From: an uncultured Dehalococcoidia bacterium
GTDB taxonomy: Bacteria; Chloroflexota; Dehalococcoidia; Lucifugimonadales; UBA3495
NCBI GenBank assembly: GCA_964502995.1
Contig: CAZCZB010000001.1
Coordinates: 45,854-109,853 of the forward strand
Reading direction: 5' to 3'
DNA length: 64,000 nt
This document shows, piece by piece, positions 2,357 to 53,553 of the stretch. The translations under genes and the position numbers were made by a program. Numbering within the stretch: position 1 is the stretch's first letter; every line of letters starts with the position of its first letter. The notes beneath the pieces are model-generated. The model made no database searches, was not told where the DNA came from, and saw only the letters and a program-made list of their open reading frames with translations.

Positions 2357-3325
2357 TTACACATCGTCTGCCGCCGTGTCCACAGCCGCCGTGTCAGCCG
2401 GCAGGTGGGCGATGCGTCGCACGCGGAGCGAGTTCCTGACCTGGTAGAGGCCCTTGATAACCTCGTCGATCTGGGACTCGACCAGGCTGGGGTTCGCCAA
2501 CCCCTGCGCGAAGGCTCCGGGCGATTCCTTGTCCATCGCCTGCAACTTGTCCAGAGTCGAGCAGATGCTCTTGAACGCCCCCTCGAAGCTCGTAACCGCC
2601 TCGCGCTGGGCCTCGGTCAGCAGCCCCTCAGTGAACAGGGCCGTTTCCTCGGAGTTCTCCTCCTCATGGACCCGGTTGCACAGCAGCTCGACCTCGCGGG
2701 TCGTCAGGTTGGACCGGTTCATCGCCGCCAACACCCGACCCTGGCCGCTGGGCGACAGCTTGGACATGAAGATGGCCGACATCGGGTTGACCTCGCCCTT
2801 CGACACCATTTGCAGGACGTCTTCCCGAGCATCCAGGAGCTTGATGAACCAGTTGATGTTGCCGGCAGTGGTGCCGACCGATTCGCCGATCTCCTTGGCT
2901 GTGTAATCCTCGTCCAGCATCTTCTGGTAGGCGCGGGCCTTCTCGACCGGGTCGAGGTCCACCCGCACGATGTTTTCCAGCAGCTGGAGCTTGGCCGTTT
3001 CCTGGGCGGTGAGGTCCTTGCGGATGATGGCGGGGATGGTCTCCCAGCCGAGCAGACCGGCGGCTCGCCACCGGCGCTCACCGGCGATGATGATGTAGCG
3101 CTTGTTGCGCGTGGTGCTGTTCTCCTCGTCGGGCCGGATGCTGATGGGCTGGAGCAGGCCGTTGCTGGCCAGGCTCGCCGACAGTTCCTTGAGCGCCGCG
3201 TCGTCGAAGGTCTTGCGGGGCTGATCCGGGTCCGGCGTGATGGAATCGTGCCGGACGCTGATGACGTTGCCGACTACGACGTTGGTGGTCGGCTTGGCCC
3301 TGGTCGATTTCTGCGCGGTGGTCAT
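2357..3325 (-). CDS. parB: ParB/Spo0J-type partition or DNA-binding protein
   Basis: 322 aa. LLQPISIRP, IIAGERRWRAAGLLGWETIPAII, QLLENIVRVDLDPVEKARAY and an HTH (YTAKEIGESVGTTAGNINWFIKLL) match ParB box I/II. Confidence 0.85.
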   Translation of the reverse strand: MTTAQKSTRAKPTTNVVVGNVISVRHDSITPDPDQPRKTFDDAALKELSASLASNGLLQPISIRPDEENSTTRNKRYIIIAGERRWRAAGLLGWETIPAIIRKDLTAQETAKLQLLENIVRVDLDPVEKARAYQKMLDEDYTAKEIGESVGTTAGNINWFIKLLDAREDVLQMVSKGEVNPMSAIFMSKLSPSGQGRVLAAMNRSNLTTREVELLCNRVHEEENSEETALFTEGLLTEAQREAVTSFEGAFKSICSTLDKLQAMDKESPGAFAQGLANPSLVESQIDEVIKGLYQVRNSLRVRRIAHLPADTAAVDTAADDV

Positions 3326-3343
3326 GGTGTACTCTCCTTTTTT

Positions 3344-3371
3344 GCGGGCTTGCGGTGTAGGTGATGCCCGC
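3344..3371 (-). promoter_or_regulatory. 5' leader hairpin GCGGGC-(..CCUACAC..)-GCCCGC directly upstream of SD of parB-like gene
   Basis: Minus strand: GCGGGCAUCACCUACACCGCAAGCCCGC AAAAAAGGAGAG..AUG(3325). Same architecture as the 3' products of the hammerhead elements. Confidence 0.55.
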
Positions 3372-3384
3372 TTTTCGTAGTCGT

Positions 3385-3413
3385 ATTCTGGCAGAATAAC
3401 TATCTATTGTAAA
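3385..3413 (-). promoter_or_regulatory. candidate promoter TTTACA-N17-CAGAAT (TGC extended -10)
   Basis: Minus strand: CCCTTTACAATAGATAGTTATTCTGCCAGAATACG. Shares the cccTTTAC -35 and TGC-NAGAAT layout with the promoters at 22467-22495, 10135-10162 and 18145-18172. Confidence 0.4.
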
Positions 3414-3552
3414 GGGTTTTAGTCGGGATATTCCGAAATTCCTACGGGAGATTTCCCAGAACGACGGTTTCAGTAATCCGGGGCAAGGTAGCCAAACCTG
3501 ACCGCTCGCAATACAATGGCGGCAGCCGGATTTGCTCTCCTTTTCCGGCGCC

Positions 3553-7686: not shown

Positions 7687-9174
7687 CTACGCCGCCTGTT
7701 GAGCGGCGTTGAGTTCGTGGAGCACCAGCGCCGCCACGACGCCCGGCTCAACGCTCTGCTCTTCCCGACGCTTGGAACCTTTGGCAGGCGGCATCCTGAT
7801 CCTCATGTGCCGCATGTGGACGTAGTCGTCGGCCTTCAGGTGGGCCAGCGCCGTGGCCAAGTAGGTCAGCGTCGCCATCGCCACGTGCAGCGACACCTTC
7901 TGGATGTTCAGGTAGCGGTGGGTGTCCAGCAGCCTGCTGTGCTTGGCACTGCTGAAGTGCCGCTCGATGATCGGCCGCTTCTTGTACTCGGCCTTCCATT
8001 CGTCCGAACAGCGGGGCAGCAGGCCCACAATCCGCAACAGCCGACCCTCGGTCTTCTCGTAGTGGGCGTAATCGCAATGCCTCGTAAACTGCACGCTGTC
8101 CTTCAGGTGGCAACCCTCGGCGGGACACCCGAACAGGTGCCCCTGCTCTGGATCAGTCTCGACGTACTCCATGGACTTACCGCCCACGCAGGTCGGCCGG
8201 CCATCAGCGTCATAAATGCCGTCGTACCGCCGCTCGCCGGTTTCCTTGTCCTTCTCGGGCAGCCGGACCGCGATCACTGGCATCATGCCCACGTCGATGA
8301 CGTGCCGGATGTTGTCCAATTTGTCGTAGCCCTTGTCGCCCAGGAAGTAGTGCGGCCTCAGTTCGGGGTACAGGACCAAGCAGTCATCAAGGTCCTCGAC
8401 CATCACCGCCACGTCGCTGGCGTTGGCTGGACGGGTCCTGGCGAACATCGGCAATCCGTAGTTGGAGTCTGCGACGACATCAATCGAGTAGCCGAAGTAC
8501 AGCTCGTCCTTGCTGTCCTTCTGGCCCGACTCCGCGCTGTCGCCTTTGGGCTTGGACTTGCTCTTCTTGGAATTGCGGCCTTTGCGTCCCTTGCTGGAGC
8601 GGGCATTCTTGGCGGTGCGGTGTCCCCACTTGGCGTCCGTATCCTTGGACGGTATCTCGTCACCCGTCTTCCGGCTCTTGCGACTTGGCCGTGCCCACGC
8701 CTCAACGTCGGTGCTGTCGATGACCAGCGAGTGTCCCAGCGGCGGCTTATCGGCAGGGACGATGCCGGCTTCGCGCAGCCGTTCGATCTCGCCTCGGCAT
8801 TCAAGGAACACTTCGGCGATGATGGGATCGAAGGTGTCTCGATGCGCGGCCAGTTTCTTCTTGAATCGGCTGTAGGCCCCTTCACTGGGGGCGCATTCGA
8901 GGTCGCAGATGCCCAGCAGGCGGTCGTCGCTGCCCAAGCGGTTCAGGAAGCCGTTGGCGTAGCGCTCATTGAGCGCGAACTGCATCACGAAAGCAGCCAG
9001 CATGGGCAAAGCTGTGTAGCCTGGGTTTCCGCCGCGCTCGTGGGGCGCGTCCAAGGTCTCCGCCAGAGGGCCGGCACGGGATACTACACCCCCAACCACG
9101 CCTTCGAGGAAGCCGTAGCCGCTCTTGGGGGGTTGTTTAGGTAATGGTGTATGCTTAAAATAGCAGTCGCCCAC
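7687..9174 (-). CDS. IS4/IS5-superfamily DDE transposase (DUF772-like N-terminus)
   Basis: 495 aa. GNPGYTALPMLAAFVMQFALNERYANGFL resembles the DUF772 N-terminus. FLGDKGYD and YKKRPIIERHFSSAKH give the Y-2-R-3-E-6-K signature. I could not define the IS ends by eye. Confidence 0.85.
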   Translation of the reverse strand: MGDCYFKHTPLPKQPPKSGYGFLEGVVGGVVSRAGPLAETLDAPHERGGNPGYTALPMLAAFVMQFALNERYANGFLNRLGSDDRLLGICDLECAPSEGAYSRFKKKLAAHRDTFDPIIAEVFLECRGEIERLREAGIVPADKPPLGHSLVIDSTDVEAWARPSRKSRKTGDEIPSKDTDAKWGHRTAKNARSSKGRKGRNSKKSKSKPKGDSAESGQKDSKDELYFGYSIDVVADSNYGLPMFARTRPANASDVAVMVEDLDDCLVLYPELRPHYFLGDKGYDKLDNIRHVIDVGMMPVIAVRLPEKDKETGERRYDGIYDADGRPTCVGGKSMEYVETDPEQGHLFGCPAEGCHLKDSVQFTRHCDYAHYEKTEGRLLRIVGLLPRCSDEWKAEYKKRPIIERHFSSAKHSRLLDTHRYLNIQKVSLHVAMATLTYLATALAHLKADDYVHMRHMRIRMPPAKGSKRREEQSVEPGVVAALVLHELNAAQQAA

Positions 9175-10162: not shown

Positions 10163-10367
10163 GGGGTTTGCGGAAAATGCGAACCGTGGCATTGGGACGC
10201 CGGCCAGCGAGCGCATCGGACGCCCTGGGCTGCTACGGCGGTAAGACCGTCTGCAAAAAAACCAGTTCAGGATAGGTAGGAAGCGGGGGTTCTGTAACAT
10301 TTGCGGGGTAGTTCCCTGTTCTAAAAACTCGTGCTGGGATTTGGCGGTTTTAGAACGCTACCCCCCC

Positions 10368-10397
10368 TTGACAGGGTGTATCCGTAGGGTGTATCCT
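10368..10397 (+). promoter_or_regulatory. candidate promoter TTGACA-N18-TATCCT overlapped by a tandem direct repeat GGGTGTATCC x2
   Basis: TTGACA at 10368-10373 and TATCCT at 10392-10397. The spacer and -10 consist of GGGTGTATCC-gta-GGGTGTATCC. Confidence 0.45.
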
Positions 10398-10427
10398 ATG
10401 GGTACATCAAAAACGGAGGAACCCAAA

Positions 10428-10928
10428 ATGGCCACCACCGTCAACGGCTACGAGATAAAACCTGGCGCAGACCTGCGCCATGCGTGCCTGACCGGCGCGG
10501 ACCTGTACCGCGCGGACCTGTACCGCGCGGACCTGTACCGCGCGAACTTGCGCGGCGCGGACCTGATCGGCGCAGACCTGCGCCATGCGTGCCTGACCGG
10601 CGCGGACCTGTACGGCGCGGACCTGTACCGCGCGACCCTGCGCCATGCGGACCTGTACGGCGCGAACTTGCGCGGCGCGAACCTGTACGGCGCGAACCTG
10701 TACGGCGCGAACCTGACCTGCGCGGACCTGATCGGCGCGGACCTGCGCCGTGCGTGCACCGGCGCGAACCTGCGCCATGCGGACCTGACCGGCGCGGACC
10801 TGCGCCGCGCGGACCTGTACGGCGCGGACCTGACCGGCGCGGACCTGACCGGCGCGAACCTGTACCGCGCGGACCTGTACGGCGCGACCCTGCCCTCTGG
10901 ATGGCACGCAGTCAGCTGCTGGTACTGA
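10428..10928 (+). CDS. pentapeptide-repeat protein
   Basis: 166 aa from ATG 10428 (RBS GGAGGA). Nearly the whole length is A(D/N)L(Y/R/I/T)(G/R/C) pentads (ADLYR ADLYR ANLRG ADLIG...). Built from near-identical 15-nt DNA units. Confidence 0.85.
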   Translation: MATTVNGYEIKPGADLRHACLTGADLYRADLYRADLYRANLRGADLIGADLRHACLTGADLYGADLYRATLRHADLYGANLRGANLYGANLYGANLTCADLIGADLRRACTGANLRHADLTGADLRRADLYGADLTGADLTGANLYRADLYGATLPSGWHAVSCWY

Positions 10929-12324: not shown

Positions 12325-13602
12325 CTATTCCAAACCTGGCCTAATCTGCGTTATCTGACCTAATCTCTCGATTGGCGATCCACAGGCAGGCACAGTGTTG
12401 GTTGACGCTTCACCGACCACCGCCGGCGTAGCCGGACTTACACAGTCTCCACGTCCTGACACCGGGAAGCTCGAACCCGGCCATTGTTCCAAATTCAGCG
12501 CGGCGTTCGCGTCACGCTCGACCAGCGCACCACATCCGCCGCAATACCACTGCCGATCAGAGAGCGTCATCTCTGCGTTGTGCCATCCGCAGTGAGCGCA
12601 CAGCCTGGACGAAGGGAACCATCGATCCGCCTTCTCAAAGTGGGCGCCGTACCAGGCGCACTTGTACTCCAGTTTGACCAGGAACCCGGCCATCCCAGCA
12701 TCGGCGATGGCCCGCGCCAGTCGCCGGTTCCGCATCATGCCAGCCACGTTCAGCGTCTCCACCACCACCCGGCCCGCCGACTTGGCTATCGCCGTCGTCG
12801 CCTTGTGGTGGTTGTCATTCCGAACGTTGACTATCCTGGCGTGCAGCCGCCGTCGTTTCGCGTACAGACACTCGCGCCGGTTGGAGCGATTGCTCTTGCC
12901 GTGGACGTTCCGGCTGCGGGCGATGGCTTTGTCAAGCCGGCGCAACTGCTTGAGGCCGCTGGCCAGCGCCTTTGGATTGGCCACCCTGGTACCGTCCGAG
13001 CACTCGGCCATCGTACCAACGCCGACATCGACACCGGTGGTCCGTCCATCCTTGACCGGCGGCGGTTGTTCACCGTCCTCGATGCAGAACGCGGCGAACC
13101 ACGTCCCCGCCGTGCGATTGATCGTTACCTCGCGGATCGAGCCGGGAAAGCGCAGAGCCTCCACCATGTCCACCCGGCCTATCTTCGGGAGGACCACCGC
13201 CTTGCCGTCCACGCGCACGGTGTCGGGACCGTTGTCGGCTCGGAATCCTTGTTCGTGCCGCCGCCGCTTGAAACGCGGGAACCCAACGCGCCGTCCTGGG
13301 CGCTGGCCAGCCTTCACCGCCTTGCGGTACGCCCCCCAACCCGCCGCGGCCTGGCCGAAGTCGATGATGGCGTATTTCGCAGCGTTCTGAGACAGCGGCG
13401 CGGACCATGGGGCGATCATCCCCTTGACCTTGTTCCAACGCGGCCGCAACGTGCGCTCGGACAGCCACTCGCCAACGTCCAGTCCAGCCTTGAACTCGCC
13501 CACCGCCCAGTTGTAGGCGAACCTGGCATAGCCGGCGTGCTGAGCCAGGACGGACTCCTGCTCCCGCGTAGGCTTCAACGCTATCCGGTGTGCTCGCTTC
13601 AT
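12325..13602 (-). CDS. tnpB: TnpB (OrfB) RNA-guided-endonuclease-type transposon protein
   Basis: 425 aa. N-terminal MKRAHRIALKPTREQESVLAQHAGYARFAYNWAV and a C-terminal zinc ribbon CAHCGWHN...WYCGGCGALVERDANAALNL. Confidence 0.9.
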   Translation of the reverse strand: MKRAHRIALKPTREQESVLAQHAGYARFAYNWAVGEFKAGLDVGEWLSERTLRPRWNKVKGMIAPWSAPLSQNAAKYAIIDFGQAAAGWGAYRKAVKAGQRPGRRVGFPRFKRRRHEQGFRADNGPDTVRVDGKAVVLPKIGRVDMVEALRFPGSIREVTINRTAGTWFAAFCIEDGEQPPPVKDGRTTGVDVGVGTMAECSDGTRVANPKALASGLKQLRRLDKAIARSRNVHGKSNRSNRRECLYAKRRRLHARIVNVRNDNHHKATTAIAKSAGRVVVETLNVAGMMRNRRLARAIADAGMAGFLVKLEYKCAWYGAHFEKADRWFPSSRLCAHCGWHNAEMTLSDRQWYCGGCGALVERDANAALNLEQWPGSSFPVSGRGDCVSPATPAVVGEASTNTVPACGSPIERLGQITQIRPGLE

Positions 13603-13605
13603 GGC

Positions 13606-14262
13606 CTATCCGATCAGCGACAGTTGCCGCGCCGTCTCCACCACAGTCTGATCTCCATCGTTGGCCAGCGCGTCCAGCAGTTTCTTGCTCTTGTGGCTGC
13701 GACTGCCGTACAACTTCGCCGAAAACACGGTGATGATCTCCAGCACGTCCTGCGCCAACTCTTCCTCAAAACTCGGCTGCTCGCCTTGATGGATGATGAC
13801 GATCTCGATACCTTGCAGCTCGCACAACGTGAACACCAGTTCAGCGCCGAACCGCAACAGCCGGTCCTTGTGCGTGATTACCAGCCGCTCCGTCCGCCGG
13901 CGCAGGATCAACTCCAGCAACTCCTGGAGTCCTTTCTTGCGGTAGTTCATACCGCTGCCGAGGTCGCGGATCACCTGGGTGCGCCATCCTTTCGTCGCGC
14001 AGTAGGCCTCTAGCGCGGCGTGCTGGCGATCCAGATCCGCCTTCTGGTCCGGGCTGGATACTCGCGAATAGCAAATGGTCAGCGGTTCCGCCGGGTCGCT
14101 CCGGTAGCCGAGCAGGTCCGCGACGGCGTAGTAGCGAGTGCCGCCCTGCGTTTTGCGCGTCGGCATCAATTCGCCGGTGGACTCCCACTTCCGCAACTGT
14201 CCCGGTGTGGTCCCGAGCATTCTCGCCGCTTCGCCTATCTTGACCAGTCTGGCATCGTTCAT
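13606..14262 (-). CDS. tnpA: IS607-type serine recombinase transposase
   Basis: 218 aa. MerR-like HTH (VKIGEAARMLGTTPGQLRKWESTGEL) followed by the resolvase catalytic motif ICYSRVSSPDQKADLDRQ. Confidence 0.9.
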   Translation of the reverse strand: MNDARLVKIGEAARMLGTTPGQLRKWESTGELMPTRKTQGGTRYYAVADLLGYRSDPAEPLTICYSRVSSPDQKADLDRQHAALEAYCATKGWRTQVIRDLGSGMNYRKKGLQELLELILRRRTERLVITHKDRLLRFGAELVFTLCELQGIEIVIIHQGEQPSFEEELAQDVLEIITVFSAKLYGSRSHKSKKLLDALANDGDQTVVETARQLSLIG

Positions 14263-28862: not shown

Positions 28863-29060
28863 TCACCTTTTCTTTACCGGCCACACATTCTTCACCGCTT
28901 CCACGGCCTCTGCTATATCGCTGAGGGATGCGTTGGGATCCATGACAGTCATGACGACGTAGCAGTCCGAGCAACGCCAGGCTACCCACATCGGGCCGGA
29001 AATTTGGCCTTGAAAATCGTGCCATCCGAAATGGCAGAATATCCGACGCAGGTATCTCAC
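28863..29060 (-). CDS. small hypothetical protein (GTG start)
   Basis: 65-aa ORF. GTG 29060 overlaps the upstream UGA (GUGA). Confidence 0.45.
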   Translation of the reverse strand: MRYLRRIFCHFGWHDFQGQISGPMWVAWRCSDCYVVMTVMDPNASLSDIAEAVEAVKNVWPVKKR

Positions 29061-29383
29061 AATTCACCTCGAGCCTTTGCGATGGCAGCTTTGATCCGCT
29101 GCATTTCGGGCGATGATTGGTACTCCGCCCATCCGGCCTGCCCGTGGAAAAATCTGATGATGTCCACCGCCTCCTCCAATTCGTCCAGGAGGTCCGGCGC
29201 GGCGGAGATGAGGCACACATTGGCGCATGTAGTCTCCTGATCGAAGTCGCTATAGGCGTAATCAACGATGGTCAGGCCCGATGCCTTTTCCCAAATTTGG
29301 GGCTCGACGTTCTTGTCATCCCAACAATCAGGCAGGTTGCAAGTTGCGAGCCAGGGTCCCTGCGTGTGCTTTCTTTCGCTCAT
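29057..29383 (-). CDS. hypothetical protein, GPW...AAP-helix family paralog
   Basis: 108 aa with HTQGPWLA, LISAAPDLLDELEEA and a C-terminal AAIAKARGEL. Confidence 0.55.
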   Translation of the reverse strand: MSERKHTQGPWLATCNLPDCWDDKNVEPQIWEKASGLTIVDYAYSDFDQETTCANVCLISAAPDLLDELEEAVDIIRFFHGQAGWAEYQSSPEMQRIKAAIAKARGEL

Positions 29384-29700
29384 ACTTCTCCTTTGGCCTT
29401 GGCGATGACCCTGCGGGCGTTGTCGAGGACGGCGCGCCGAAGTTGAGACTCCGGCAAGCTCTCCAGCAGGTCGTCGAGGATGAGCACCATTTGCTCGCAG
29501 CCGAGGCGCACCTTGTGCTGGTTGTTTCGATAGTAGTCGCCCACGTATTCGATGTACTGATTCAGCCCTTCTAACGCGCTGCCTTCCAGGGCAATGCTGT
29601 TCAATACGGTAATGCCATTGCTGGTTTCCACGATCAGCGAGTGGCCATCGTGCCGGACGTAAACGCCGTCTCCGATGTATCGCGGGTTGGGTAGTCTCAT
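29380..29700 (-). CDS. hypothetical protein
   Basis: 106 aa. The C-terminal RRVIAKAKGEV encodes the SD for the next gene (AUGA overlap). Confidence 0.55.
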   Translation of the reverse strand: MRLPNPRYIGDGVYVRHDGHSLIVETSNGITVLNSIALEGSALEGLNQYIEYVGDYYRNNQHKVRLGCEQMVLILDDLLESLPESQLRRAVLDNARRVIAKAKGEV

Positions 29701-29731
29701 CTCTGTACGTTCTCCTTGTTCGGTCGTCGGA

Positions 29732-30772
29732 TCAGGGTCGTCGCAGCGACGACGTCCCTGCCTCGCCGTCGCCTATGGCCCGCTGCCACGCTTCGCGCAG
29801 GGCCGGGAGTTGGTCAGCGAACACACTCGGGTCTTGATGGGTCAACCAGTAAACGAAATCGTCACTGGCGTCCGATGCGTTTTGAGGTGGCGGCAGACCA
29901 TCACAATATGACTGCCACAGCAGCGCGAGGATGCGGTCAATTTGCCGGCGTTCCGCGCAGCGACGGCGACGCTCCCAGAACAGGTACACTCCATGATCCA
30001 GCCATTCCTCGAGGGCGTGGTCCAGCGGGTCGCCTTGGAAGCCCAGCACGTCGGAGCGGTATGCGTCGCGTCCGATGCGCAGACGGTCAAACACGGCGTC
30101 GGCAAGCCAGTCGCGGCAAGCCTTCAGGTCGGCCGGCTGCATGGACCGCCAGCCGTGAACCTGTTGGTATTCCAGATCATCGGGCGCCTTGGCCGGGGCG
30201 CCGGCATCCCCCAGACTCACCGGCTCGATGTTGTGCAGCCACCACCAGCCGTTGAGGTTGTTGATCAGCTCGGCCTTCACAACCATACCGGCCAGCCCAC
30301 GCACCATCGGCATCACCATTTCCGAGACCTCAGCTATAAATCCGTCGATGATCACCTTGCGATTACGTGGCTCGTTGCTCTCGATTCGCAGCACGCCGAC
30401 GACCACCTCGGGATACGGGAGCTGACGCCGGTCTTGAAGATCTTCTTGGCCATCGCCTTGCACCAGCTCGTGTTCAAGCGCCGCCCCCAGCGGTCCGTAG
30501 GCTTCCCTGGCAGTGGGTAGGTCCGCCCGCTCTGCGGATTCCTCCCGAACGCTGCCGATGCCCTCCGCATCGTCGGACTGGGTGATGCCGACGGTGGCGG
30601 CTACTTCGGCCTGGAGTTCCTGTTCCGCTATGGTTCCAAAATGCGGTGATGCCCTCCAGTCGGCGTCAACGTAGTCGCTGAGATACCAGAGGTGTGCATA
30701 TCGGCTCCACCACGCGGCGGGGTGCTCTCCCGGTCTTGGGTTGTGCATCATGTAGGCAGGTATCAATTTCAT
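29732..30772 (-). CDS. hypothetical protein (346 aa)
   Basis: Long ORF with consistent codon bias and no recognisable motif. Confidence 0.6.
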   Translation of the reverse strand: MKLIPAYMMHNPRPGEHPAAWWSRYAHLWYLSDYVDADWRASPHFGTIAEQELQAEVAATVGITQSDDAEGIGSVREESAERADLPTAREAYGPLGAALEHELVQGDGQEDLQDRRQLPYPEVVVGVLRIESNEPRNRKVIIDGFIAEVSEMVMPMVRGLAGMVVKAELINNLNGWWWLHNIEPVSLGDAGAPAKAPDDLEYQQVHGWRSMQPADLKACRDWLADAVFDRLRIGRDAYRSDVLGFQGDPLDHALEEWLDHGVYLFWERRRRCAERRQIDRILALLWQSYCDGLPPPQNASDASDDFVYWLTHQDPSVFADQLPALREAWQRAIGDGEAGTSSLRRP

Positions 30773-30779
30773 TCTCCTT

Positions 30780-31727
30780 TTAGTTCCAATCGGCCACGTC
30801 CCACCCTTTCGGGCAGGGACCGTAGCCGCCCAGGGCGCGGTACACGTCCTCGGCTTTCAGCATCTTCACGTCGCCGGCGATCCCGTCCAGGTAGTCGCGG
30901 ACGCGCAGCACGAACATCACGCCGGCGTCGTCGTTGTCGCCCATGACCAGCACTTCACGGTCTTTCAGCGGCCACCACGAGGTCGGCGCCGGCCCGCTCC
31001 CGCCCACCGGACAGGTGCAGGCGTACTGCGGCCACAGCTCGGCCGCGGCGTCCGTGGCCTTCTCGCCCTCGCAGATCAGCACCGTGGCGTCGGGCATGGC
31101 CAACAGTTCCGGCAACCGATACAGGGGCAGGATGGCGTCCTGGGTTCCGCCCAGCGCCCAGCGCCGGCCCGTCCAGGTAGCCCGACGCACTTCCTTGTCC
31201 GGGATGCCCTTTTTGTCGTTCCACGCCGGCCACCTGACCACCAGCAGGGCGATGCCGCCGTCCTTCGTGCGGTAGCGGTAGATCTCCGGCGCTCCGGTGG
31301 ACGAAATTTCCTGGTTCTCCGCCCAGAAGTCCAGTTCCTCTTTACGCGGCAACCGGGCGTCGGGCGGCGCGATCTTCAGGCGGTAGGTGGGCGGCGGGGT
31401 CTCCGGTACCGCCGGCGCCGTGGCGACGGAGCCGGTGCCACGGCTGAGCCAGTTGCTTGCCCTGAGCCACCGGATCGCGTCGCCGGCGTCGCAGCCCAGC
31501 CTGGCGGCCACCACGTCCACCACGTCGTGATAGACGCCCCCGTTGAACTCGTACCCATGCCCATCAGTGAGCGAGATCATGCAGGACTGGCCCGGTTCGC
31601 CCTGGAAGTTGCCGACCTGGAGCGTCTGCTTCCGTGAGTTGACCTTCCCAGTGGGATAGAGGCCCACCATCAACGCCCGCATGTCCGCGATCCGCTGGGA
31701 GATTGGGGGCCGTTTGTGCTGCGTCAT
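30780..31727 (-). CDS. Toprim-domain primase-like protein
   Basis: Start at ATG 31727 (AUGA overlap). VLICEGEKATDAA and VLVMGDNDDAG match the Toprim E...DxD motifs. Confidence 0.75.
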   Translation of the reverse strand: MTQHKRPPISQRIADMRALMVGLYPTGKVNSRKQTLQVGNFQGEPGQSCMISLTDGHGYEFNGGVYHDVVDVVAARLGCDAGDAIRWLRASNWLSRGTGSVATAPAVPETPPPTYRLKIAPPDARLPRKEELDFWAENQEISSTGAPEIYRYRTKDGGIALLVVRWPAWNDKKGIPDKEVRRATWTGRRWALGGTQDAILPLYRLPELLAMPDATVLICEGEKATDAAAELWPQYACTCPVGGSGPAPTSWWPLKDREVLVMGDNDDAGVMFVLRVRDYLDGIAGDVKMLKAEDVYRALGGYGPCPKGWDVADWN

Positions 31728-32092
31728 CGGCCTGCCCTCCCTGAGCGCAGCATGTGGCCCGCGCTCGGCATGGCCGCACATGCGCTACACATTGGCAGGT
31801 CCGGTGATTCCTTACGCCGGCTGCATTCGCAGAGCGACCGCTGATACTCCCGTGACTTGGCTCGGCAGGCTTCCAAGTTGCGATAGTAATAATCGCGCCA
31901 CCATTGCCGCCGCCGCTCCGATGGCAAGGAGTCTTGATATACCCTCGTGCGGCAGCTCGCCGAGCAGTAGATCTGCCGCATCCCCTTGACCTTGGGTGTG
32001 AAGGTGTTTTCGCAGCCATCGCGGGCGCACGTTCTAACCTCTGTCGTCATTACTGGACTCATGCCCTTCTCCGTTCGCATAGCGGGCCTCAC
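31724..32092 (-). CDS. zinc-finger protein
   Basis: 122-aa ORF with CARDGC...CSASC and further Cys pairs. The true start may be internal (MSPVMTTEV). Confidence 0.5.
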   Translation of the reverse strand: MRPAMRTEKGMSPVMTTEVRTCARDGCENTFTPKVKGMRQIYCSASCRTRVYQDSLPSERRRQWWRDYYYRNLEACRAKSREYQRSLCECSRRKESPDLPMCSACAAMPSAGHMLRSGRAGR

Positions 32093-32226
32093 AACGCCGC
32101 TTTGCTGCCCTTTTGATGCGTCTGTCGTTCGGCGTCGCCCGGATGCGCGAATCTCGGCGTCTCGGCTCCAATCGCCGAGACTCGGATTTTCGATTTCATG
32201 TCACCTGCCTGTCGTTCCCTGACCTG

Positions 32227-32344
32227 AAAATTGTCAAAATTGTCAATTTTCCAGTGCGTGTTATTCCAAATACCTATATTTCGTATTTCCTCGCGTACTA
32301 AATCTGTTAACACGCACCGACAATTTGACAATTTTGACAATTTC
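32227..32344. repeat. iteron/palindrome array: AAATTGTCA x2 - GTGCGTGTTA - 44-bp AT-rich core - TAACACGCAC - TGACAATTT x3 (origin-like)
   Basis: Two direct 9-10-bp repeats at 32227-32245. Three inverted copies at 32319-32344. A perfect 10-bp inverted repeat at 32254-32263 and 32308-32317. The region is markedly AT-rich and lies between the helicase-like and primase genes. Confidence 0.7.
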
Positions 32345-32348
32345 GGCG

Positions 32349-33878
32349 TTACTCTCGTGCCGCCGGATGGACCAGCCACTTTCCGCGCTGGCCGGGGATC
32401 GGCTCGACCAAGCCCTCGGTTTCCAGGCGACGGATGGCGTCATTCCGGCGGTCTGGATCGGTACGAAAAGATCTCCAACCCAACGTCAACAGCGACCGCA
32501 GCCCGACCACCAGCTCGCCCTCGGCGTCGGTGCTGACGCCCTTGGCGCCGCTGTACACGGCGTCACCGATGGCCCTCCACGCGATGAGCGCGTCGTTGGC
32601 CTCCTGGGTTGCCATGCTCATGCTGGCCACACGGCGCAGTTCGTTGCCGTACCAGTCGGCCAGGTCAATGCCGGCCTGGGCCTCGTCCGGTGTCATGGTC
32701 AGGTCGGAGCCGGGGCTGACCGTCTGATAGCCGCGCAACGCGGTCAGCAGCCCGGCGATGCGCTGGGCGTGTTCCGTGGATCGGTTGTGCCAGCCGGCCA
32801 TGACGGTGTCCCCGTCGCCGTTGGCCGTGGCAACGAGCACGTACTCGGTCTCCAGGTACGAGCGCATCATCCCGTGGGCCTCCAGGTCCAGTGTGATGTT
32901 GGCCCGTTCCGGCGTCCGGTAGCCCGCGAATTCGACGCCGTCGTTCTGGCGCCGGAGGGCCTCCGCCATGATGCGCTCGATGCCGTTGAATCGGCGCTTG
33001 GCGTCGGCGCGTTCCTGACGGGACAGATCCGGCGGCAGGTCTTCGAGGTCCGCCTGATACGACACCAGCAACCGTTGGGCATAACCGTTGGCGGCGGCCG
33101 GGTCCATCACCCATGAAGCGAAGGGGCCGGGCTGCCCGAAAAACAGGCAGGACAGATAGCGGCCGGTGATCGTATAGTCGGTCTGATCGCGCACGCGGTT
33201 GACATGTATGCCGGTGCCGTCCCAAAGGGCGGCGTAGTCGTGCATGGTCTTGGGCCGGTTGGCGGACTTGCCGGACCAACCGTCGGTCAACGTCACCAGC
33301 TCGGTCAGATATTGCCACTGGGCGGGCCGGCCCTCCGCCAGGCATTGCATCAGGGCCTCGATGGTGGCGTCGGACCGGAGCACCTGGGGCGATGAACGGG
33401 CCGGGGCCCGGTCGGGATTGTCGTCGCGGGCGGCTTTGTCGGCGTGGGACCACCACGCCTTGGCGTCGCGCCAACGCAGGCCGACGGCGGTATCGGCCTG
33501 GTCGAATATCTTCTTGACCTCGCCCAGGGTCGAGGACTTGCGCTGTCCCGTGGGCGCGGCGCAGATCGCATAGACCTGGAGCGGGAGGTCGGGGCCGATG
33601 CCCTGCACCACGTAGTCCAGCTGAGCGACGCCGGCCAGACCCGCCAGCAGAGCCGTGCCCGCCATGGCGGGGTTGGCGCCAGTGAGTTCGTAGAGCGCAT
33701 CGACGGCATCCTGCACGACCGGCGGCAGCTTGTGCAGCGGATATGGGGCCTGATCCGGTATGCGGGCATCGAGCGTCGGCTCCGGCCACTCGATGGCCGG
33801 GAGCGCCGGCCTTGATGGGCCGTCGTCCCGTTCGGGAGGGGCGTTCGCCATTGCCGCGAGGTCGGTTGTATCAGCCAT
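32349..33878 (-). CDS. DUF3987/P4-type replicative helicase-like protein
   Basis: 509 aa. Walker-A-like ICAAPTGQRKSS. Position next to the Toprim primase, and its size, fit phage primase-helicase partners. Confidence 0.6.
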   Translation of the reverse strand: MADTTDLAAMANAPPERDDGPSRPALPAIEWPEPTLDARIPDQAPYPLHKLPPVVQDAVDALYELTGANPAMAGTALLAGLAGVAQLDYVVQGIGPDLPLQVYAICAAPTGQRKSSTLGEVKKIFDQADTAVGLRWRDAKAWWSHADKAARDDNPDRAPARSSPQVLRSDATIEALMQCLAEGRPAQWQYLTELVTLTDGWSGKSANRPKTMHDYAALWDGTGIHVNRVRDQTDYTITGRYLSCLFFGQPGPFASWVMDPAAANGYAQRLLVSYQADLEDLPPDLSRQERADAKRRFNGIERIMAEALRRQNDGVEFAGYRTPERANITLDLEAHGMMRSYLETEYVLVATANGDGDTVMAGWHNRSTEHAQRIAGLLTALRGYQTVSPGSDLTMTPDEAQAGIDLADWYGNELRRVASMSMATQEANDALIAWRAIGDAVYSGAKGVSTDAEGELVVGLRSLLTLGWRSFRTDPDRRNDAIRRLETEGLVEPIPGQRGKWLVHPAARE

Positions 33879-33913
33879 CGTGCTTGTTCAATTCGGCGTT
33901 GGTGGCGTTGTCG

Positions 33914-35941
33914 TCATTCCGTAGGTTGGGCGTCAGACAGCGTGGCCCGGACGAGCGCGGCCGCCAGATGGACGGGAACCGCGTTGCCGATTTGCTTCGT
34001 GACCTCGCTGATGTTGCCCACGAACTCGTACTGCGACTCCTCGTCGTCAAACCCCATGGCCCGGGCCAGCTCGGCGTTCTCCAGCATCCTGAACCGGATG
34101 TCCAGCAGGTGAGGCTGGCCGTCCACGAAAACGATGCGCCTGGGGTCGATGCCGGCTTCGACGGCCTCGCGGGCGATGTCCTCCGCGATGGTGGGCGTAA
34201 CCAGGTTGCCCGCCCCTCGACTGGTGACTTTGGGCAGCGGGTCGGACACGTCATGCACCCTCGGCTCCTGACCGGAAGCCTCGCCGAAGTTGGGCACGAT
34301 GTAGGACTGCGCCACCGGAACCGTCAGCGTCAAATCTCCCTTGGTGGTCATGGTGGGCAGTGGGCTATCCAGCGGCCGGCTATAGTCGCCGCTGCGTCCC
34401 GTCTGACTGATCCGGGCCACGATGGGTTGCGCCAACCCCAGCCCCGGCGAGGTGGTGATAGAACCCAACGGCTTATCCACCGAGTGGACACGGCGGTCGT
34501 CGCCCTTCTCCCCCTGGCTGCCGTTGCCGTGGGCCAGTTTGATCACGGCGGGGTTGGCCAGCCCATGACGCGCCTTCGTGGTAACCGTGTGCAGGGGATC
34601 GTCGATGCTGGCGGCATCGCTGTTGCCGTAGTATTCGACGATAACCGGACTGACGACGGCGTGTTTACGGCAGCCGGTGATCGCCGACAGCGGGTGAGCC
34701 GTGTCCTGGGCGAAGCTCTGGCCGTAATACTGGATGATGGTCGGGCGTACCAGCGAGATCTTGCCCGCCGTGGCGATGGTAGGGGTCGGCTCCTCGGTCG
34801 ATCTTGGCGCTCCGGCGCTCTGCTGGCCCAGCATGAAGGGCCGCAGGTCCGGCTCGACGAGAATGCTGCCGCCGCCGTGGGCCGTGGTGATACAGGGAAC
34901 CGGCTCATCGACACCCTTGGGGGCATTGTCGGTCCGGTTCGCGTTCAGGAACGGTTCGGCGTCGGTGTTCACCAGGTAGCCGCCGCCCTGGCAGGTGACG
35001 GTTGGGAACGGATCATCGATTGAATGGAAGCGGCCGGTCCCGTTCTCGCCGTGGCGATTCAGGATGAACGCCTGCGCCGGCAGATCGGCGGGATCCGCGC
35101 CGATCTCGTCTTCCAGGTCCAATAGCCGGATGTAGAGCGGGGCCAGCGGACCGCCGAAATGCTGGAGGCCCTTGGCGATGCGCCGGCGCGTCTTGGGGCT
35201 GAGCGGACGCTTCCGGTACTTGGGGTCGTCCAGCAGGGAGCGTCCCAGGTTCTCCCAGTTGATGATCTCCTTGGCCCCGCGCCAGGGTTGCCGCCCCGGG
35301 AACATCCCCGTGTCGCCCCTGGCATGGGACGGCTCGGGCCAAACCGTCGGCCTGCCGTCCTTCCGGGCCAGCAGAAAGAACCGGGTGCGCGTGGTCGCGT
35401 CGCCGTAGTCGGCGGCGTTGAGCATCTTCCACTCGGCGGTGTAGCCCAGGGCGTGGAAGGTCAGGAACCAGGCTTCAAAATGCTTGCCGCGCTGGGACTT
35501 ATCGGGCCGTCCACTTTCGTCGAGAGGCCCCCAATTCACGAACTCCGGCACGTTCTCTATGATGACGCAGCGGACATCGAGCTTGGTGAGCCAATTGTGG
35601 ATCGCCCAGGGGTTCATCCTGCCCTGGTCGTGAATGGGCTTGCCGCCCCGTGCGCGGGAGTAGAACCGGCACTCCGGGCTGGCCATCAGCAGGTCCAGCC
35701 GGCCCCCCGGTACGACGGCCTCGGGATCCACGATGCTGACGTCCTCCACCAGGTGCCTGGCCGTGGGATGGTTGGCCTGGTGTGTGGCGATAGCGGTGTT
35801 CCAGTGGTTGATTGCCACCAGGTCCATGGCGCTGCCGAGGTCCTCTATGGCGTGTTGGGCGCCGGTCGAGGAACCGCCGGCTCCACAGAAGAGGTCGGCG
35901 ACGAGGAACGTACTCTGCAAATCTATGGTGGATGCTTTCAC
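33914..35941 (-). CDS. DNA (cytosine-5) methyltransferase with an expanded, 8-fold repeated target-recognition region
   Basis: GTG start. Motif I DLFCGAGGSS, PC-type motif IV ASPECRFYS, VIIENVPEF, TTRTRFFLLA and motif X GNAVPV. Between VIII and IX there are eight D-x-P-x-x-[TS]-[IV]-T units. Confidence 0.9.
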   Translation of the reverse strand: MKASTIDLQSTFLVADLFCGAGGSSTGAQHAIEDLGSAMDLVAINHWNTAIATHQANHPTARHLVEDVSIVDPEAVVPGGRLDLLMASPECRFYSRARGGKPIHDQGRMNPWAIHNWLTKLDVRCVIIENVPEFVNWGPLDESGRPDKSQRGKHFEAWFLTFHALGYTAEWKMLNAADYGDATTRTRFFLLARKDGRPTVWPEPSHARGDTGMFPGRQPWRGAKEIINWENLGRSLLDDPKYRKRPLSPKTRRRIAKGLQHFGGPLAPLYIRLLDLEDEIGADPADLPAQAFILNRHGENGTGRFHSIDDPFPTVTCQGGGYLVNTDAEPFLNANRTDNAPKGVDEPVPCITTAHGGGSILVEPDLRPFMLGQQSAGAPRSTEEPTPTIATAGKISLVRPTIIQYYGQSFAQDTAHPLSAITGCRKHAVVSPVIVEYYGNSDAASIDDPLHTVTTKARHGLANPAVIKLAHGNGSQGEKGDDRRVHSVDKPLGSITTSPGLGLAQPIVARISQTGRSGDYSRPLDSPLPTMTTKGDLTLTVPVAQSYIVPNFGEASGQEPRVHDVSDPLPKVTSRGAGNLVTPTIAEDIAREAVEAGIDPRRIVFVDGQPHLLDIRFRMLENAELARAMGFDDEESQYEFVGNISEVTKQIGNAVPVHLAAALVRATLSDAQPTE

Positions 35942-35966
35942 TTTGGGTCTCCGATAGCGTGTAGGT

Positions 35967-36476
35967 TTATGTCTGGTAGAGCATCGGCGTCGCCGCCTTG
36001 GGCAGGTACAGCGGATGGCGGGGCGCTCCGCCCTTCGTGGTCCCGAGGCAGTACAGCGACCTGTGCCGGAACCTGCTCAACATCGTCGCCACCGTGTCTC
36101 CCCGGTCCCGGTGGTGGCCGTGGACGCCCCAGGCACAAACCGTCAACGTCGCGTTGTCGTGCATGTCCACCAGGGCATCGTCGTTGTCAGGGCCGACCGG
36201 GTCGTCGCTCTCGTAGAGCCGGTTCGGGTCGGTGGCACGGAGGGCAAAGAGGTTGCCCACCACGAGGCCGCCGAAGTCCCAGCGCCGGGCGTAGTCAATG
36301 CAGCGGCGGATGGTCGGATCATCCTGGCTGGCGTCGGCGGTGGACGGGTTCAGCATGATGAACAGGCACGACGGCTTGTCGGCGTCCCATTCGCGCCAGA
36401 GGCGGTAGCGGTACACGCCGTCGTCGGAGAGGACGGCCCCACTGGTTGGCGGAAGGTTTAGGTCTAGGGGCAACAT
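35967..36476 (-). CDS. DUF1643-family protein
   Basis: 169 aa. YRYRLWREW...CLFIMLNPSTADASQDDPTIRRCIDYA...VVGNLFALRATDP is the DUF1643 signature. Confidence 0.8.
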   Translation of the reverse strand: MLPLDLNLPPTSGAVLSDDGVYRYRLWREWDADKPSCLFIMLNPSTADASQDDPTIRRCIDYARRWDFGGLVVGNLFALRATDPNRLYESDDPVGPDNDDALVDMHDNATLTVCAWGVHGHHRDRGDTVATMLSRFRHRSLYCLGTTKGGAPRHPLYLPKAATPMLYQT

Positions 36477-48487: not shown

Positions 48488-48511
48488 TGCAGTCTCCTCG
48501 TTTTGCTGGTT

Positions 48512-48532
48512 GATACCAGTAATACTGGTATC
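48512..48532. promoter_or_regulatory. operator O1: perfect 10-1-10 palindrome GATACCAGTA-A-TACTGGTATC
   Basis: Read directly from the sequence. Related imperfect sites at 48548-48566 (AAACCAGTATTACTTGTAT) and a half-site GATACAGTA at 48584-48592. Confidence 0.75.
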
Positions 48533-48542
48533 AGATTGGCGA

Positions 48543-48571
48543 ATCCTAAACCAGTATTACTTGTATGTCAA
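48543..48571 (-). promoter_or_regulatory. candidate cro-side promoter TTGACA-N17-TAGGAT with operator O2 in the spacer
   Basis: Minus strand: TACTTGACATACAAGTAATACTGGTTTAGGATTCG. O1 lies just downstream of the -10. Confidence 0.55.
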
Positions 48572-48618
48572 GTATTTTTGTTTGATACAGTAAGGCCACC
48601 GTTGATAGCGGAGGTGTC

Positions 48619-49290
48619 ATGGCGACTACAAATCTTTTAGGCGGTCGGGTGAAGCGAGCACGTGACCGCGCCAACATGACTCAAGCGGAATTGGCCGATT
48701 GCTTGGGCGTGCGACAACAGGCCATATCCAACGTCGAGACCAACCGCAACGAGTTGAAGTGGGAGATGATTGTCGATTTAGCGAAAGCGCTCAACGTCTC
48801 CGTTGACTACCTAGCCTGTCTGACGGACGACCCCATATCCTGCGACGACCGATTTGTCAGGTCTATCGGCTATGAGTTCGTCGAATACGTACCCATCCAA
48901 CGGGATTTGGCAGTGGCCGGCATCAACATGGGGAATCTTGTTGGCCACGAGGTCGGCGGCTTGCCTTTTCGCCGCTTCCGACTGGAACAGCTCGGCATCG
49001 ACCCGACGAATGCGCGTGTGTTTCGGGTCAAGGGCGATTCCATGTGCCCGACATTGACCGACGGCGGCGCAATCCTGGTGGACTACGCCCAAAGCAGGCT
49101 CTACGACGGCGGGATATTCGTTTTTGAGATAGACGACACCCTGATGGTGAAGCGCGCCCGTTACAGCGACCAATGGATGATGGTCAGCGACAATCCGGAC
49201 CCGGCATTTGCGTCGATTCCCTTCACCGAAGAGGCCATTATCTGGGGGCGGGTGGTCTGGACGTCACGGATTTTCTACGGCAGTAAGTAA
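48619..49290 (+). CDS. CI/LexA-like repressor (XRE HTH + S24 peptidase)
   Basis: 223 aa. MTQAELADCLGVRQQAISNVE HTH. VKGDSMCPTL (Ser) and MVKRARY (Lys) form the autocleavage dyad. Confidence 0.9.
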   Translation: MATTNLLGGRVKRARDRANMTQAELADCLGVRQQAISNVETNRNELKWEMIVDLAKALNVSVDYLACLTDDPISCDDRFVRSIGYEFVEYVPIQRDLAVAGINMGNLVGHEVGGLPFRRFRLEQLGIDPTNARVFRVKGDSMCPTLTDGGAILVDYAQSRLYDGGIFVFEIDDTLMVKRARYSDQWMMVSDNPDPAFASIPFTEEAIIWGRVVWTSRIFYGSK

Positions 49291-51928: not shown

Positions 51929-52405
51929 TTGACGACAAGGGAGACTACTTTGAAAACTAGGACCACTTTGCTTGCCGCCTTTGCGGTGGTCGTCGCCATC
52001 GTTGGGGCGTGGTTCTCTGCCGGCGCGAGCGTCTCCGCGCACCAGCCTGACGTTTATCAGATTGATCAGAGCAATGCACCTGATCCCCCCTGCACCTTCT
52101 ACCACGACGATGCCTGTGAAATCGCCGCTACCCCAGGAAGTTTGACTATCTCTGAGTCGAACTGGGCCGGGCAATCCCATGGACTCGATACCCAACTCAG
52201 CGCCGCGCAAGCGCACTTTCAGAACCTTACCGGCTTCGCCGAACTAAAGGGGCAGGTGAACGACCACATCGTGCCAAGCGTCACCCGCTTACTTGTCGCA
52301 AGCGGCGGGACCGATACTTCGAGCGGAGATGTGAGCTACGCCATAACCTCAGACATCACCGGCCTGCCGTGGATCGCGGAGGCGGAGTACCAGGTACTGC
52401 CTTAG
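51929..52405 (+). CDS. secreted hypothetical protein
   Basis: 158 aa. Signal-like TLLAAFAVVVAIVGAWFSAGASVSA. Confidence 0.5.
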   Translation: MTTRETTLKTRTTLLAAFAVVVAIVGAWFSAGASVSAHQPDVYQIDQSNAPDPPCTFYHDDACEIAATPGSLTISESNWAGQSHGLDTQLSAAQAHFQNLTGFAELKGQVNDHIVPSVTRLLVASGGTDTSSGDVSYAITSDITGLPWIAEAEYQVLP

Positions 52406-52425
52406 GTCAGACCGACATCAACCCC

Positions 52426-53553
52426 ATGGCCGGCCAGATAACACAACGCAAGCCCGGCGTCTGGAAGCTCGTCGTCAACCTCGGCCGCGATACCCAGGGC
52501 ATCCGCCGGCGCCGCGCCTTCACCGTTCACGGCACCCGCCGCGACGCCGAGCGACGCCTGCGTGAAATCCTGACCGACCTTGACCGCGGCGTCGCTCCGC
52601 CGGAACACATCACCTTGGCCGAGTGGCTCGACCGTTGGATGCGGGAGGTCATCGTCCCTCAGCGGAGTGTGGCCACCGCCGAGCGGTACGAGGGCATCAT
52701 CCGCAAGTACATTGGCCCAGCCCTCGGCCATCACGAATTGGCCCGACTATCGCCCCTGCGGATCAAGCGGTTCCAGGACGAGATGCTCGATGACGGCCTG
52801 TCGCCCTCGTCAGTGGGCCTGATGCACATCATCATTTCGGGGGCCTACCGCTACGCCATGATGCTGGAGGTAGTCCAGCGCAACCCCGCGTCGGCGGTGC
52901 CGGGCCCACCCCGCGTTCGGGGCGCAATCGACGTACCCGAGGTCGAATACGTTCAGGCGATGCTGGACCTGGCCGAACGCGAAAAGCACCTGTTGTTCCC
53001 CATGATCCACGCCATCGCCTACACCGGAATGCGCCGGGGCGAGGCCATCGCGCTGACGTGGGACGACGTCGACCTGGACAACGGCTATTTGGAGATAACC
53101 CGTTCGGCGGGCTGGCGACGGGCCGGGCTGGTCATCTCGTCGCCCAAGACTGCCGCCGGCGCCCGCATGGTGGACCTGGACCCGAGGACGATTGAGGTGC
53201 TGCTGGACCACCGGAAGTGGCAGGCCGCTTACATCGCGGACCATGCCGGCTACTACGACAACCGGGGCATATTGTTCGCTGACGAAAAAGGCGGCTATAT
53301 CAAGCCCAACCGGGTGTCGCGGACTATTGGGGACCTTGGTCGGAAGGTCGGCCACCCCCGAATGACGACCCACTCCCTGCGCCACTTCCACGTGACGATG
53401 CTGTTGCAATCGGGGTTCCACGAGGCCATCGTCGCCCAGCGCGCCGGCCACGCCAATTCCTCAATCACCCGGACGGTGTACGCCCACGCACTGCCCGGCT
53501 GGCAACGCGAAGCGGCGGAAGCCTTCGGTAAGGCTATGGAGCGTGGAGCGTGA
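52426..53553 (+). CDS. int: tyrosine integrase
   Basis: Start at ATG 52426 (MAGQITQRKPGVWKLVVNLG). AYTGMRRGEAIALTWDDVD (Arg I), HSLRHFHVT (H-x-x-R) and RTVYAH (Tyr). Confidence 0.9.
   Translation: MAGQITQRKPGVWKLVVNLGRDTQGIRRRRAFTVHGTRRDAERRLREILTDLDRGVAPPEHITLAEWLDRWMREVIVPQRSVATAERYEGIIRKYIGPALGHHELARLSPLRIKRFQDEMLDDGLSPSSVGLMHIIISGAYRYAMMLEVVQRNPASAVPGPPRVRGAIDVPEVEYVQAMLDLAEREKHLLFPMIHAIAYTGMRRGEAIALTWDDVDLDNGYLEITRSAGWRRAGLVISSPKTAAGARMVDLDPRTIEVLLDHRKWQAAYIADHAGYYDNRGILFADEKGGYIKPNRVSRTIGDLGRKVGHPRMTTHSLRHFHVTMLLQSGFHEAIVAQRAGHANSSITRTVYAHALPGWQREAAEAFGKAMERGA

Follow-up and report, generated by a model that had tools for sequence, protein, structure and literature searches.

Opposed iterons around an AT-rich core beside a DUF3987 helicase gene: a candidate replication origin in a predicted prophage

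The window, by which we mean the whole 64-kb stretch of DNA that was analysed, was annotated through a GC3-guided ORF survey combined with profile searches. Judged by its gene content, most of the window is occupied by a prophage of >50 kb: more than 48 kb of minus-strand early genes are accompanied by a CI-like repressor gene (48619-49290, plus strand) and an integrase gene (52369-53553, plus strand) that has host-like genes to its right. The early operon runs leftward on the minus strand in the order thymidylate synthase, two DNA methyltransferases, DUF1643 and a DUF3987 gene, followed by the element that is the subject of this analysis. Beyond the element lie a possible 36-aa ORF, a zinc-ribbon ORF, a primase-like ORF, genes for unknown products, a sliding-clamp-like protein and IS elements, and then a ParB-like gene (2357-3325, 29 kb away from the element). 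The element stands within a polycistronic early operon and is therefore almost certainly transcribed as part of it.

Several other features of the prophage were recorded in the same survey. Its right end appears to lie near 53.6-54.2 kb, since the integrase gene is followed there by host-like methyltransferase and aminotransferase genes; no tRNA gene was found anywhere in the 64-kb window. The AT-rich gap that separates a cro-like minus-strand ORF from the CI-like repressor gene holds, within 48500-48600, a perfect 21-bp palindrome (GATACCAGTAATACTGGTATC) and related half-sites (ACCAGTATTACT, TTGATACAGTAAG), which are probably the immunity operators. Among the early genes, a 15-bp period is repeated in tandem about 26.5 times (10487-10893) within a plus-strand ORF (10341-10928) that looks like the gene of a pentapeptide-repeat protein. 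Two stretches, 12325-14262 and 7687-9174, hold signs of transposition: a TnpB-like ORF (phrog_506) and a serine-recombinase-type transposase (phrog_6620) together suggest an IS607-like insertion, and another transposase-like ORF is present in the early region.

All genes flanking the element are on the minus strand, so the zinc-finger/primase operon that the initial annotation had described as downstream lies to the left of the element, and the three-repeat set of the element comes first in the direction of the genes. The gene on the right (32349..33878, minus strand) encodes a 509-aa protein of the DUF3987 family (PF13148; SF6, MCM-like), a predicted helicase and putative initiator. On the left, a possible 36-aa ORF of uncertain gene status (32089..32199, minus strand) carries a Shine-Dalgarno-like AGGTGA and starts 28 nt beyond the distal iterons. 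Next to it are an ORF for a zinc-ribbon-like protein of 122 aa (31724..32092, minus strand; zf-CGNR at E 0.0048, below the cut-off, with Cys pairs in the translation) and an ORF for a primase-like protein of 333 aa (30780..31781, minus strand). The latter is a weak assignment based on matches to phrog_239 (DNA primase/helicase, E 2.5e-9), phrog_6088 (DNA primase, E 1.3e-4) and NCBIfam PRK07078 (E 8.5e-16, far under that model's cut-off); searches of this product against Pfam and against PDB sequences gave no match. The element had been placed between helicase-like and primase genes: the helicase gene does adjoin it, but two ORFs intervene before the primase-like gene.

The element itself covers 116 bp (32228-32343) and consists of short repeats in palindromic order with an AT-rich centre, a nested symmetric layout that had been proposed for it and that both sequence reading and a repeat finder bore out. 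The helicase-proximal set is made up of three GACAATTT iterons (plus strand; 32319-32326, 32327-32334 and 32336-32343) at 8- and 9-bp spacing. The first of the right-hand repeats had been given as TGACAATTT, and this was corrected to CGACAATTT. The helicase-distal set (32228-32245) holds two iterons at 9-bp spacing that read AAATTGTCA on the plus strand, inverted with respect to the proximal set. Between the two sets, which are 73 bp apart, the repeat finder located an inner inverted repeat with the arms GTGCGTGTTA (32254-32263) and TAACACGCAC (32308-32317). These arms enclose a 44-bp AT-rich core (32264-32307, 34% GC), the proposed melting region, which contains TACGCGAGG in the minus-strand reading, so that 3+2 GACAATTT repeats in opposite orientations flank the core. 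Taken as one inverted repeat, the whole element has 36-nt arms that are 89% complementary, with 44 nt between them. In gene orientation, the proximal three-repeat set starts 5 nt past the stop codon of the helicase gene and the distal two-repeat set ends 28 nt ahead of the next ATG. The hexamer TTGACA, a -35 consensus, is embedded in the iteron.

Within the window this arrangement is statistically singular. The exact 8-mer GACAATTT occurs five times in 64 kb, each time inside the element, with an expectation of 1.08 copies per window from shuffled sequence and none of 100 shuffles reaching 5. When one mismatch was allowed, GACAATTT was found elsewhere in the window only at background level, and the inner 10-mer pair GTGCGTGTTA/TAACACGCAC has no other exact occurrence in the 64 kb. 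The most AT-rich 60 bp of the window falls in the element (GC 0.283 vs 0.614 window-wide), and nearest-neighbour duplex instability puts the element in first place over 60 bp and in second place over 100 bp. It had been called the sole strongly AT-rich stretch of the replication module; it is the AT-rich extreme of that module, but three further intergenic regions of the window (at about 48.5, 22.45 and 3.4 kb) are similarly easy to melt. The opposed-repeat pattern scan described below found no iterons in these three regions. The cumulative GC skew (200-bp windows, 29000-36000) drops from 29 kb to about 32.6 kb and then rises; this local minimum coincides with the element, and it was given no weight because the whole-window profile has a lower minimum elsewhere.

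The product of the adjoining gene (32349-33878) matched PF13148 at E 3.1e-34 (119.2 bits against a gathering cut-off of 27; 363 of 364 profile positions covered) and phrog_2373, 'DNA helicase', at E 4e-14. A search with the helicase profile against PDB sequences, including those of solved Rep structures, gave no match. For structure prediction, a 31-sequence alignment was built from an exhaustive HMMER search, and the AF2 model computed from it (pLDDT 91.6, pTM 0.85) superseded a poor earlier model based on six sequences (pLDDT 58), with which the fold search had been non-significant (weak local winged-helix matches to ETS and CooA at E >0.6). The best 50 Foldseek matches in the PDB were all MCM chains, archaeal or eukaryotic (best E 7e-5, prob 1.00), in alignments that cover 350-520 columns, 495-519 in some, at a sequence identity of 8-14%. 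In the AF2 model, the C-terminal about 65 residues (about 445-505) adopt the topology E-E-H-H-H-E-E, which is winged-helix-like. The lysine K114 of a Walker A-like P-loop (GQRKSS) is invariant across the 31 homologues, and close relatives keep the C-terminal motif DPxRRxxAIxRLExEGL...PGxKxxWLIHP, with its variable positions inside the third helix. Profile match and predicted fold together mark the protein as an MCM-like ATPase (DUF3987/SF6) whose C terminus is winged-helix-like. DUF3987 proteins have been described as MCM-related members of SF6 with a C-terminal wHTH and proposed to be phage replicative helicases (PMC4889955). A PriCT-DUF3987 protein was shown to be a helicase; it is so far the only characterised helicase among DUF3987 proteins, and its polarity is 5'-3' (PMC11724360).

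Relatives of the locus were sought at the level of DNA and of protein. A word-indexed homologue search returned six close proteins, and HMMER detected 4,231 homologues for the DUF3987/MCM-like helicase family as a whole. Two public sequencing runs, SRR8304783 and SRR8304784, were found to hold the sequence itself, exactly. Searching the segment 31000-34000 against phage and plasmid collections with blastn gave no match. With tblastn, the helicase had no match among 50,697 sequenced phage records even at E 0.01 and a single one among plasmids, from Paracoccus (locus L027 below). An exact iteron search in IMG/VR hit nine AT-rich giant-virus or phage contigs, which were taken as chance matches. 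Searches for related loci with the protein or with alignments found nothing in viral and metagenome collections and, in the genome collection, only L015 (the same as L012) and L016. On the strength of these searches, the helicase lineage of the window is a rare one.

For comparison we used 12 further independent DUF3987 loci, whose proteins are 19-53% identical to that of the window. In 10 of the 12, opposed sets of repeats at 8-10-bp spacing surround a core beside the DUF3987 gene, and the repeat sequence is different in every lineage. The close clade comprises L010, L014 and L017 (51%, 43% and 49% identity to the window helicase, respectively), in each of which 3+3 opposed repeats are found, the first of them 1-5 nt past the DUF3987 stop. 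Each of these elements opens with three tandem repeats and closes with three inverted ones; between them come a G/T-rich inner inverted repeat and then an AT-richer core. The repeat reads TTTAGGAC in L010, TGTTGTCA / GGCAACAA in L014 and TTATGGCA in L017 (consensus form YTATGGCA). Including the window, the distance between the two repeat sets is 67-73 bp in all four close loci, with a core GC of 0.38-0.49 at a locus GC of 0.59-0.64; for L010, L014 and L017 taken alone, core GC is 40-49%. The elements of L010, L014 and L017 end 12-25 nt ahead of the next ATG; in L010 and L014 they also precede small ORFs, which have no evident similarity to the 36-aa ORF of the window. The inner repeat has its counterpart in AGGCGRGT for L010 and in GTGYG..C for L014, while L020 and L022 have long, extended arms in that role. 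A terminase is encoded on the same 54.7-kb contig as L014. Aligning the four close elements with MAFFT gave no useful information, since their repeats lack sequence homology to one another.

Short matches are nevertheless seen in the cores. The 9-mer TACGCGAGG (32278-32286, minus-strand reading) recurs in the L014 core (about 6796-6804); in both loci it stands some 22-26 nt away from the proximal iterons, and L017 has TACGGAGA at the core position where the window and L014 have TACGCGAGG. Closer to the distal side, TATTTTTA is common to the cores of L010, L014 and L017. These shared core sequences may be a conserved signal, for example a site for priming or for a host factor.

In more distant relatives the plan recurs at other distances from the gene. 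Two Paracoccaceae loci, L016 and L027 (26-27% identity), carry opposed CCTATTC and GTAGCGG sets, respectively, 48-54 nt after the stop. In L020, L022, L025 and L026 (25-31% identity in the 31-sequence alignment), the DUF3987 gene is directly followed by the next ORF, and it is on its upstream side, at 92-427 nt, that the opposed sets are found; their repeats are CATTTCGGA, TTAGCAG, GAGATACG and TTTTTMAC, respectively. The DUF3987 gene of L023 is preceded, at a distance of about 500 nt, by large opposed GGGTTTSG / CSAAACCC arrays on both sides of a palindrome of roughly 50 bp (L023 700-1000). The position of the element accordingly differs between clades: one clade has it 3' of the gene, the other 5'. 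L013 and L021 showed no clear element in the available DNA, which for L021 is a contig of only 2.9 kb.

Some details of these loci are recorded here for completeness. The L023 arrays are bracketed by direct repeats of about 45 bp, and a Rad52-like gene lies downstream. The DUF3987 gene of L013 is apparently frameshifted near its 3' end (3300-3445), with the C-terminal GKKGRWLIHP in another frame, and it is directly followed by the next ORF without an iteron element. L027 is from Paracoccus versutus pTAV4 (NZ_CP035287.1, at about 625.0 kb), in which the DUF3987-like ORF is unannotated. Just past that ORF (L027 4490-4760) are two palindromic GTAGCGG clusters, each with reverse and forward copies, 150 bp apart; L027 is in this respect a doubled form of the element in a cultured strain.

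The association with the gene was also assessed by scanning 130 kb for a strict pattern in which copies in tandem, at 8-11-bp spacing, are succeeded within 190 bp by tandem copies in the inverse orientation. With a threshold of at least five copies, the scan gave seven matches, all seven beside a DUF3987 gene and none elsewhere in the 130 kb; the four-copy matches include about four background ones in GC-rich coding DNA. A geometry that is retained, repeats that change and a constant linkage to one gene are as predicted for a cognate protein-DNA recognition pair.

The closest parallel in the literature is the origin of staphylococcal pathogenicity islands (SaPIs) and of the PICIs. SaPI Rep helicases are initiators whose C-terminal winged helix reads penta- or hexanucleotide iterons; directly after rep come 6-12 of these iterons, set about an AT-rich centre, at least two per side and in opposite directions, and the Rep of the SaPIbov1/SaPI2 type belongs to SF6 (PMC9371898). 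In every PICI origin an AT-rich region located 3' of rep is bordered by two sets of iterons, and a pri-rep-ori module from an E. coli PICI supports replication and plasmid maintenance (PMC6092414). The candidate origin of the window likewise lies immediately 3' of its putative initiator-helicase gene and has opposed short iteron sets, at least two per side, around an AT-rich centre. Other points of likeness are the adjacent AAA+ helicase with a C-terminal winged helix (a predicted fold in the window), a primase gene in the same module (only primase-like in the window) and an iteron sequence that is specific to the lineage.

There are also differences. The element is carried by a prophage of full size, in which a CI-like repressor and an integrase accompany >50 kb of phage-like genes, rather than by a satellite of roughly 15 kb that lacks most phage genes; the primase-like gene of the window is downstream of the origin, whereas the SaPI/PICI primase is upstream of rep; the iterons are 8-9 bp long, compared with the 5-6 bp stated for SaPIs; and the element has an extra inner 10-bp inverted repeat. 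Because the prophage exceeds 50 kb and carries CI and integrase genes, and because the L014 contig carries a terminase, the carrier is best described as a prophage and not as a PICI, with an origin type that fits SaPI/PICI with an SF6-type Rep. The opposed-iteron layout is already known from staphylococcal pathogenicity islands, and its presence in a full-size prophage would not be a new principle. In 2018 the plan was called common to PICIs and 'no other known bacterial replicon' (PMC6092414).

Taking these results together, we consider the element at 32228-32343 a candidate that is probably the cognate replication origin of the prophage, used by the adjacent DUF3987 helicase. An origin had been suggested by the iterons and the AT-rich unwinding core beside a helicase gene, and that suggestion is supported by the MCM-like neighbour, by the recurrence of the element at 10 of 12 loci and by the match to the SaPI/PICI layout. 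In the mechanism that we propose by analogy, the DUF3987 MCM-like helicase would bind the 8-9-bp iterons via its C-terminal winged-helix domain. [quoted passage not shown] The core (32264-32307) would then melt, the rings would load themselves without a separate loader and unwind in both directions, and the primase-like product encoded downstream would prime synthesis. The inner 10-bp inverted repeat may serve as a second contact for the rings, or it may favour extrusion or melting. MCM and SaPI Reps have 3'-5' polarity, in contrast to the 5'-3' polarity of the characterised DUF3987 helicase, and with the latter polarity the loading geometry may differ from that of the proposed model.

Other replicative systems share parts of this plan. 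The MCM of archaea and eukaryotes resembles the window protein in its ATPase fold with a C-terminal winged helix, and the symmetry of the candidate origin suggests two opposed rings; MCM, however, is loaded by ORC/Cdc6, whereas the window helicase is itself proposed to read the origin. In SV40 and papillomavirus, large T antigen or E1 binds palindromic short repeats beside an AT-rich tract and assembles as two hexamers. A viral initiator-helicase, palindromic short repeats and an AT-rich tract are thus features in common with the proposed origin, but the SV40 and papillomavirus proteins are SF3 helicases with a separate origin-binding domain, and in their origins the AT tract lies beside centrally placed repeats. 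The element of the window has the reverse layout, an AT-rich core enclosed by its repeats.

Iteron plasmids (pPS10, RK2 and F; Rep_3-type; PMC4980987) and lambda ori resemble the element in having repeated initiator sites beside an AT-rich unwinding element, near or within the initiator gene. The plasmid iterons are direct repeats of 17-22 bp to which a WH1-WH2 Rep protein binds, with the AT-rich region to one side, whereas those of the window are 8-9 bp long and opposed with the AT-rich DNA between them. The initiators of iteron plasmids and lambda are not helicases and recruit host DnaB, and lambda ori lies inside the O coding sequence. Profile searches found no Rep_3-type protein among the ORFs neighbouring the element. 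An iteron-plasmid (Rep_3/RepA) origin was ruled out by the 8-9-bp opposed repeats, the inner AT-rich region and this lack of a Rep_3-type neighbour, and by its arrangement the element is neither an iteron-plasmid nor a lambda-type origin.

We regard a purely regulatory role of the element as unlikely. On that reading it would be an operator or similar site, bound by a transcription factor or by the helicase itself as repressor, that controls a core promoter for the zinc-ribbon/primase genes and takes no part in initiation. The position of the element would suit such a site, being directly upstream of the next ORFs (last repeat 12-28 nt from the ATG in the window, L010, L014 and L017) and, in L020, L022, L025 and L026, 5' of the DUF3987 gene as an autoregulatory operator would be; the -35 consensus TTGACA inside the iteron of the window points the same way. 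However, a scan with an E. coli-type sigma-70 consensus (-35 and -10 hexamers 16-18 bp apart), which may not be that of the host, found no sense-strand promoter in any of the four close elements: there was none in the window or L017, and the matches in L010 and L014 were weak (9/12) and antisense. Only DUF3987 is constantly linked to the element, the downstream ORFs (36, 45, 160 and 307 aa) not being conserved, and in the distant relatives the element precedes the helicase gene and not zinc-finger/primase genes. Five or six repeats over about 120 bp with a constant 67-73-bp core are moreover larger than a usual operator, and the arrangement matches that of proven SaPI/PICI origins (PMC9371898, PMC6092414). 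An operator for the zinc-finger/primase operon, which the initial annotation had offered as an alternative, is accordingly the weaker proposal; the element may still have a regulatory role or hold a promoter in its core, and an element that serves as origin may also affect the expression of downstream genes.

A role at the level of RNA, in which the hairpin formed by the 36-nt arms would give the polycistronic early mRNA a processing site, cut by RNase III for instance, or an attenuator or a stabiliser between the helicase and downstream cistrons, seems to us very improbable. The element is almost certainly transcribed in the minus-strand operon, and its sense RNA folds at -48.6 kcal/mol (z = -8.1 vs shuffles). 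The sense strand also folds better than the antisense strand in the window (-48.3 vs -40.3 kcal/mol) and in L014 (-49.6 vs -33.6 kcal/mol), but L010, L017 and L020 have no strand asymmetry and L016 has the opposite one. Tandem repeats within the arms have no rationale in a hairpin and are expected for arrays of protein-binding sites. A search of 31800-32700 for intrinsic terminators (GC-rich stem-loop plus U-tract) found no site, and thus no U-tract terminator at the element. Nor did the element match an Rfam family: the sole hit was a chance one to a miRNA-precursor hairpin (20.8 bits vs a gathering score of 195).

A plan of two repeat sets with a core between them is also that of centromeres such as parC. 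Least probable of all is a DNA site of another kind, be it a partition centromere (parS/parC-like), to which that two-set-plus-core plan and the ParB-like gene of the window (2357-3325) would be suited, a pac site, or a miniature inverted-repeat mobile element, with which the shortness and terminal inverted repeats agree: the ParB-like gene is 29 kb off and none of the related loci has a partition or terminase gene linked to its element, the window holds no second copy of the element or its repeats and no visible target-site duplication, and an insertion would not recur in the same place and geometry, with different sequence, beside helicases of 43-51% identity.

To our knowledge, temperate-phage origins outside the lambda, P2/P4 and phi29 paradigms have rarely been mapped, and an origin of the kind proposed here is a testable prediction for an unstudied phage lineage. 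If the origin reading is true, the module would be a compact two-part replicon of about 1.7 kb, made up of an MCM-like self-loading helicase and a 116-bp origin, that is directly testable and would be usable as a vector module in high-GC hosts. The SaPI/PICI origin plan would also reach beyond satellites into a full prophage. Each helicase C-terminal domain would form a natural pair with its iterons, of which there are at least four distinct sequences, and such pairs would offer a route to how a winged helix reads 8-bp sites.

The DUF3987/MCM-like family occurs in full-size temperate phages and in other integrated elements. That DUF3987 genes in general carry an adjoining opposed-iteron element, as the loci compared here suggest, would be modestly surprising to specialists. 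Whether the plan of a rep gene with adjoining opposed iterons is the general origin type of the whole DUF3987/MCM-like family is a more tentative matter, which we put at somewhat short of an even chance. If that plan holds family-wide, origins and their specificity would be predictable from sequence, and the replication modules of PICIs may derive from phage modules of this kind.
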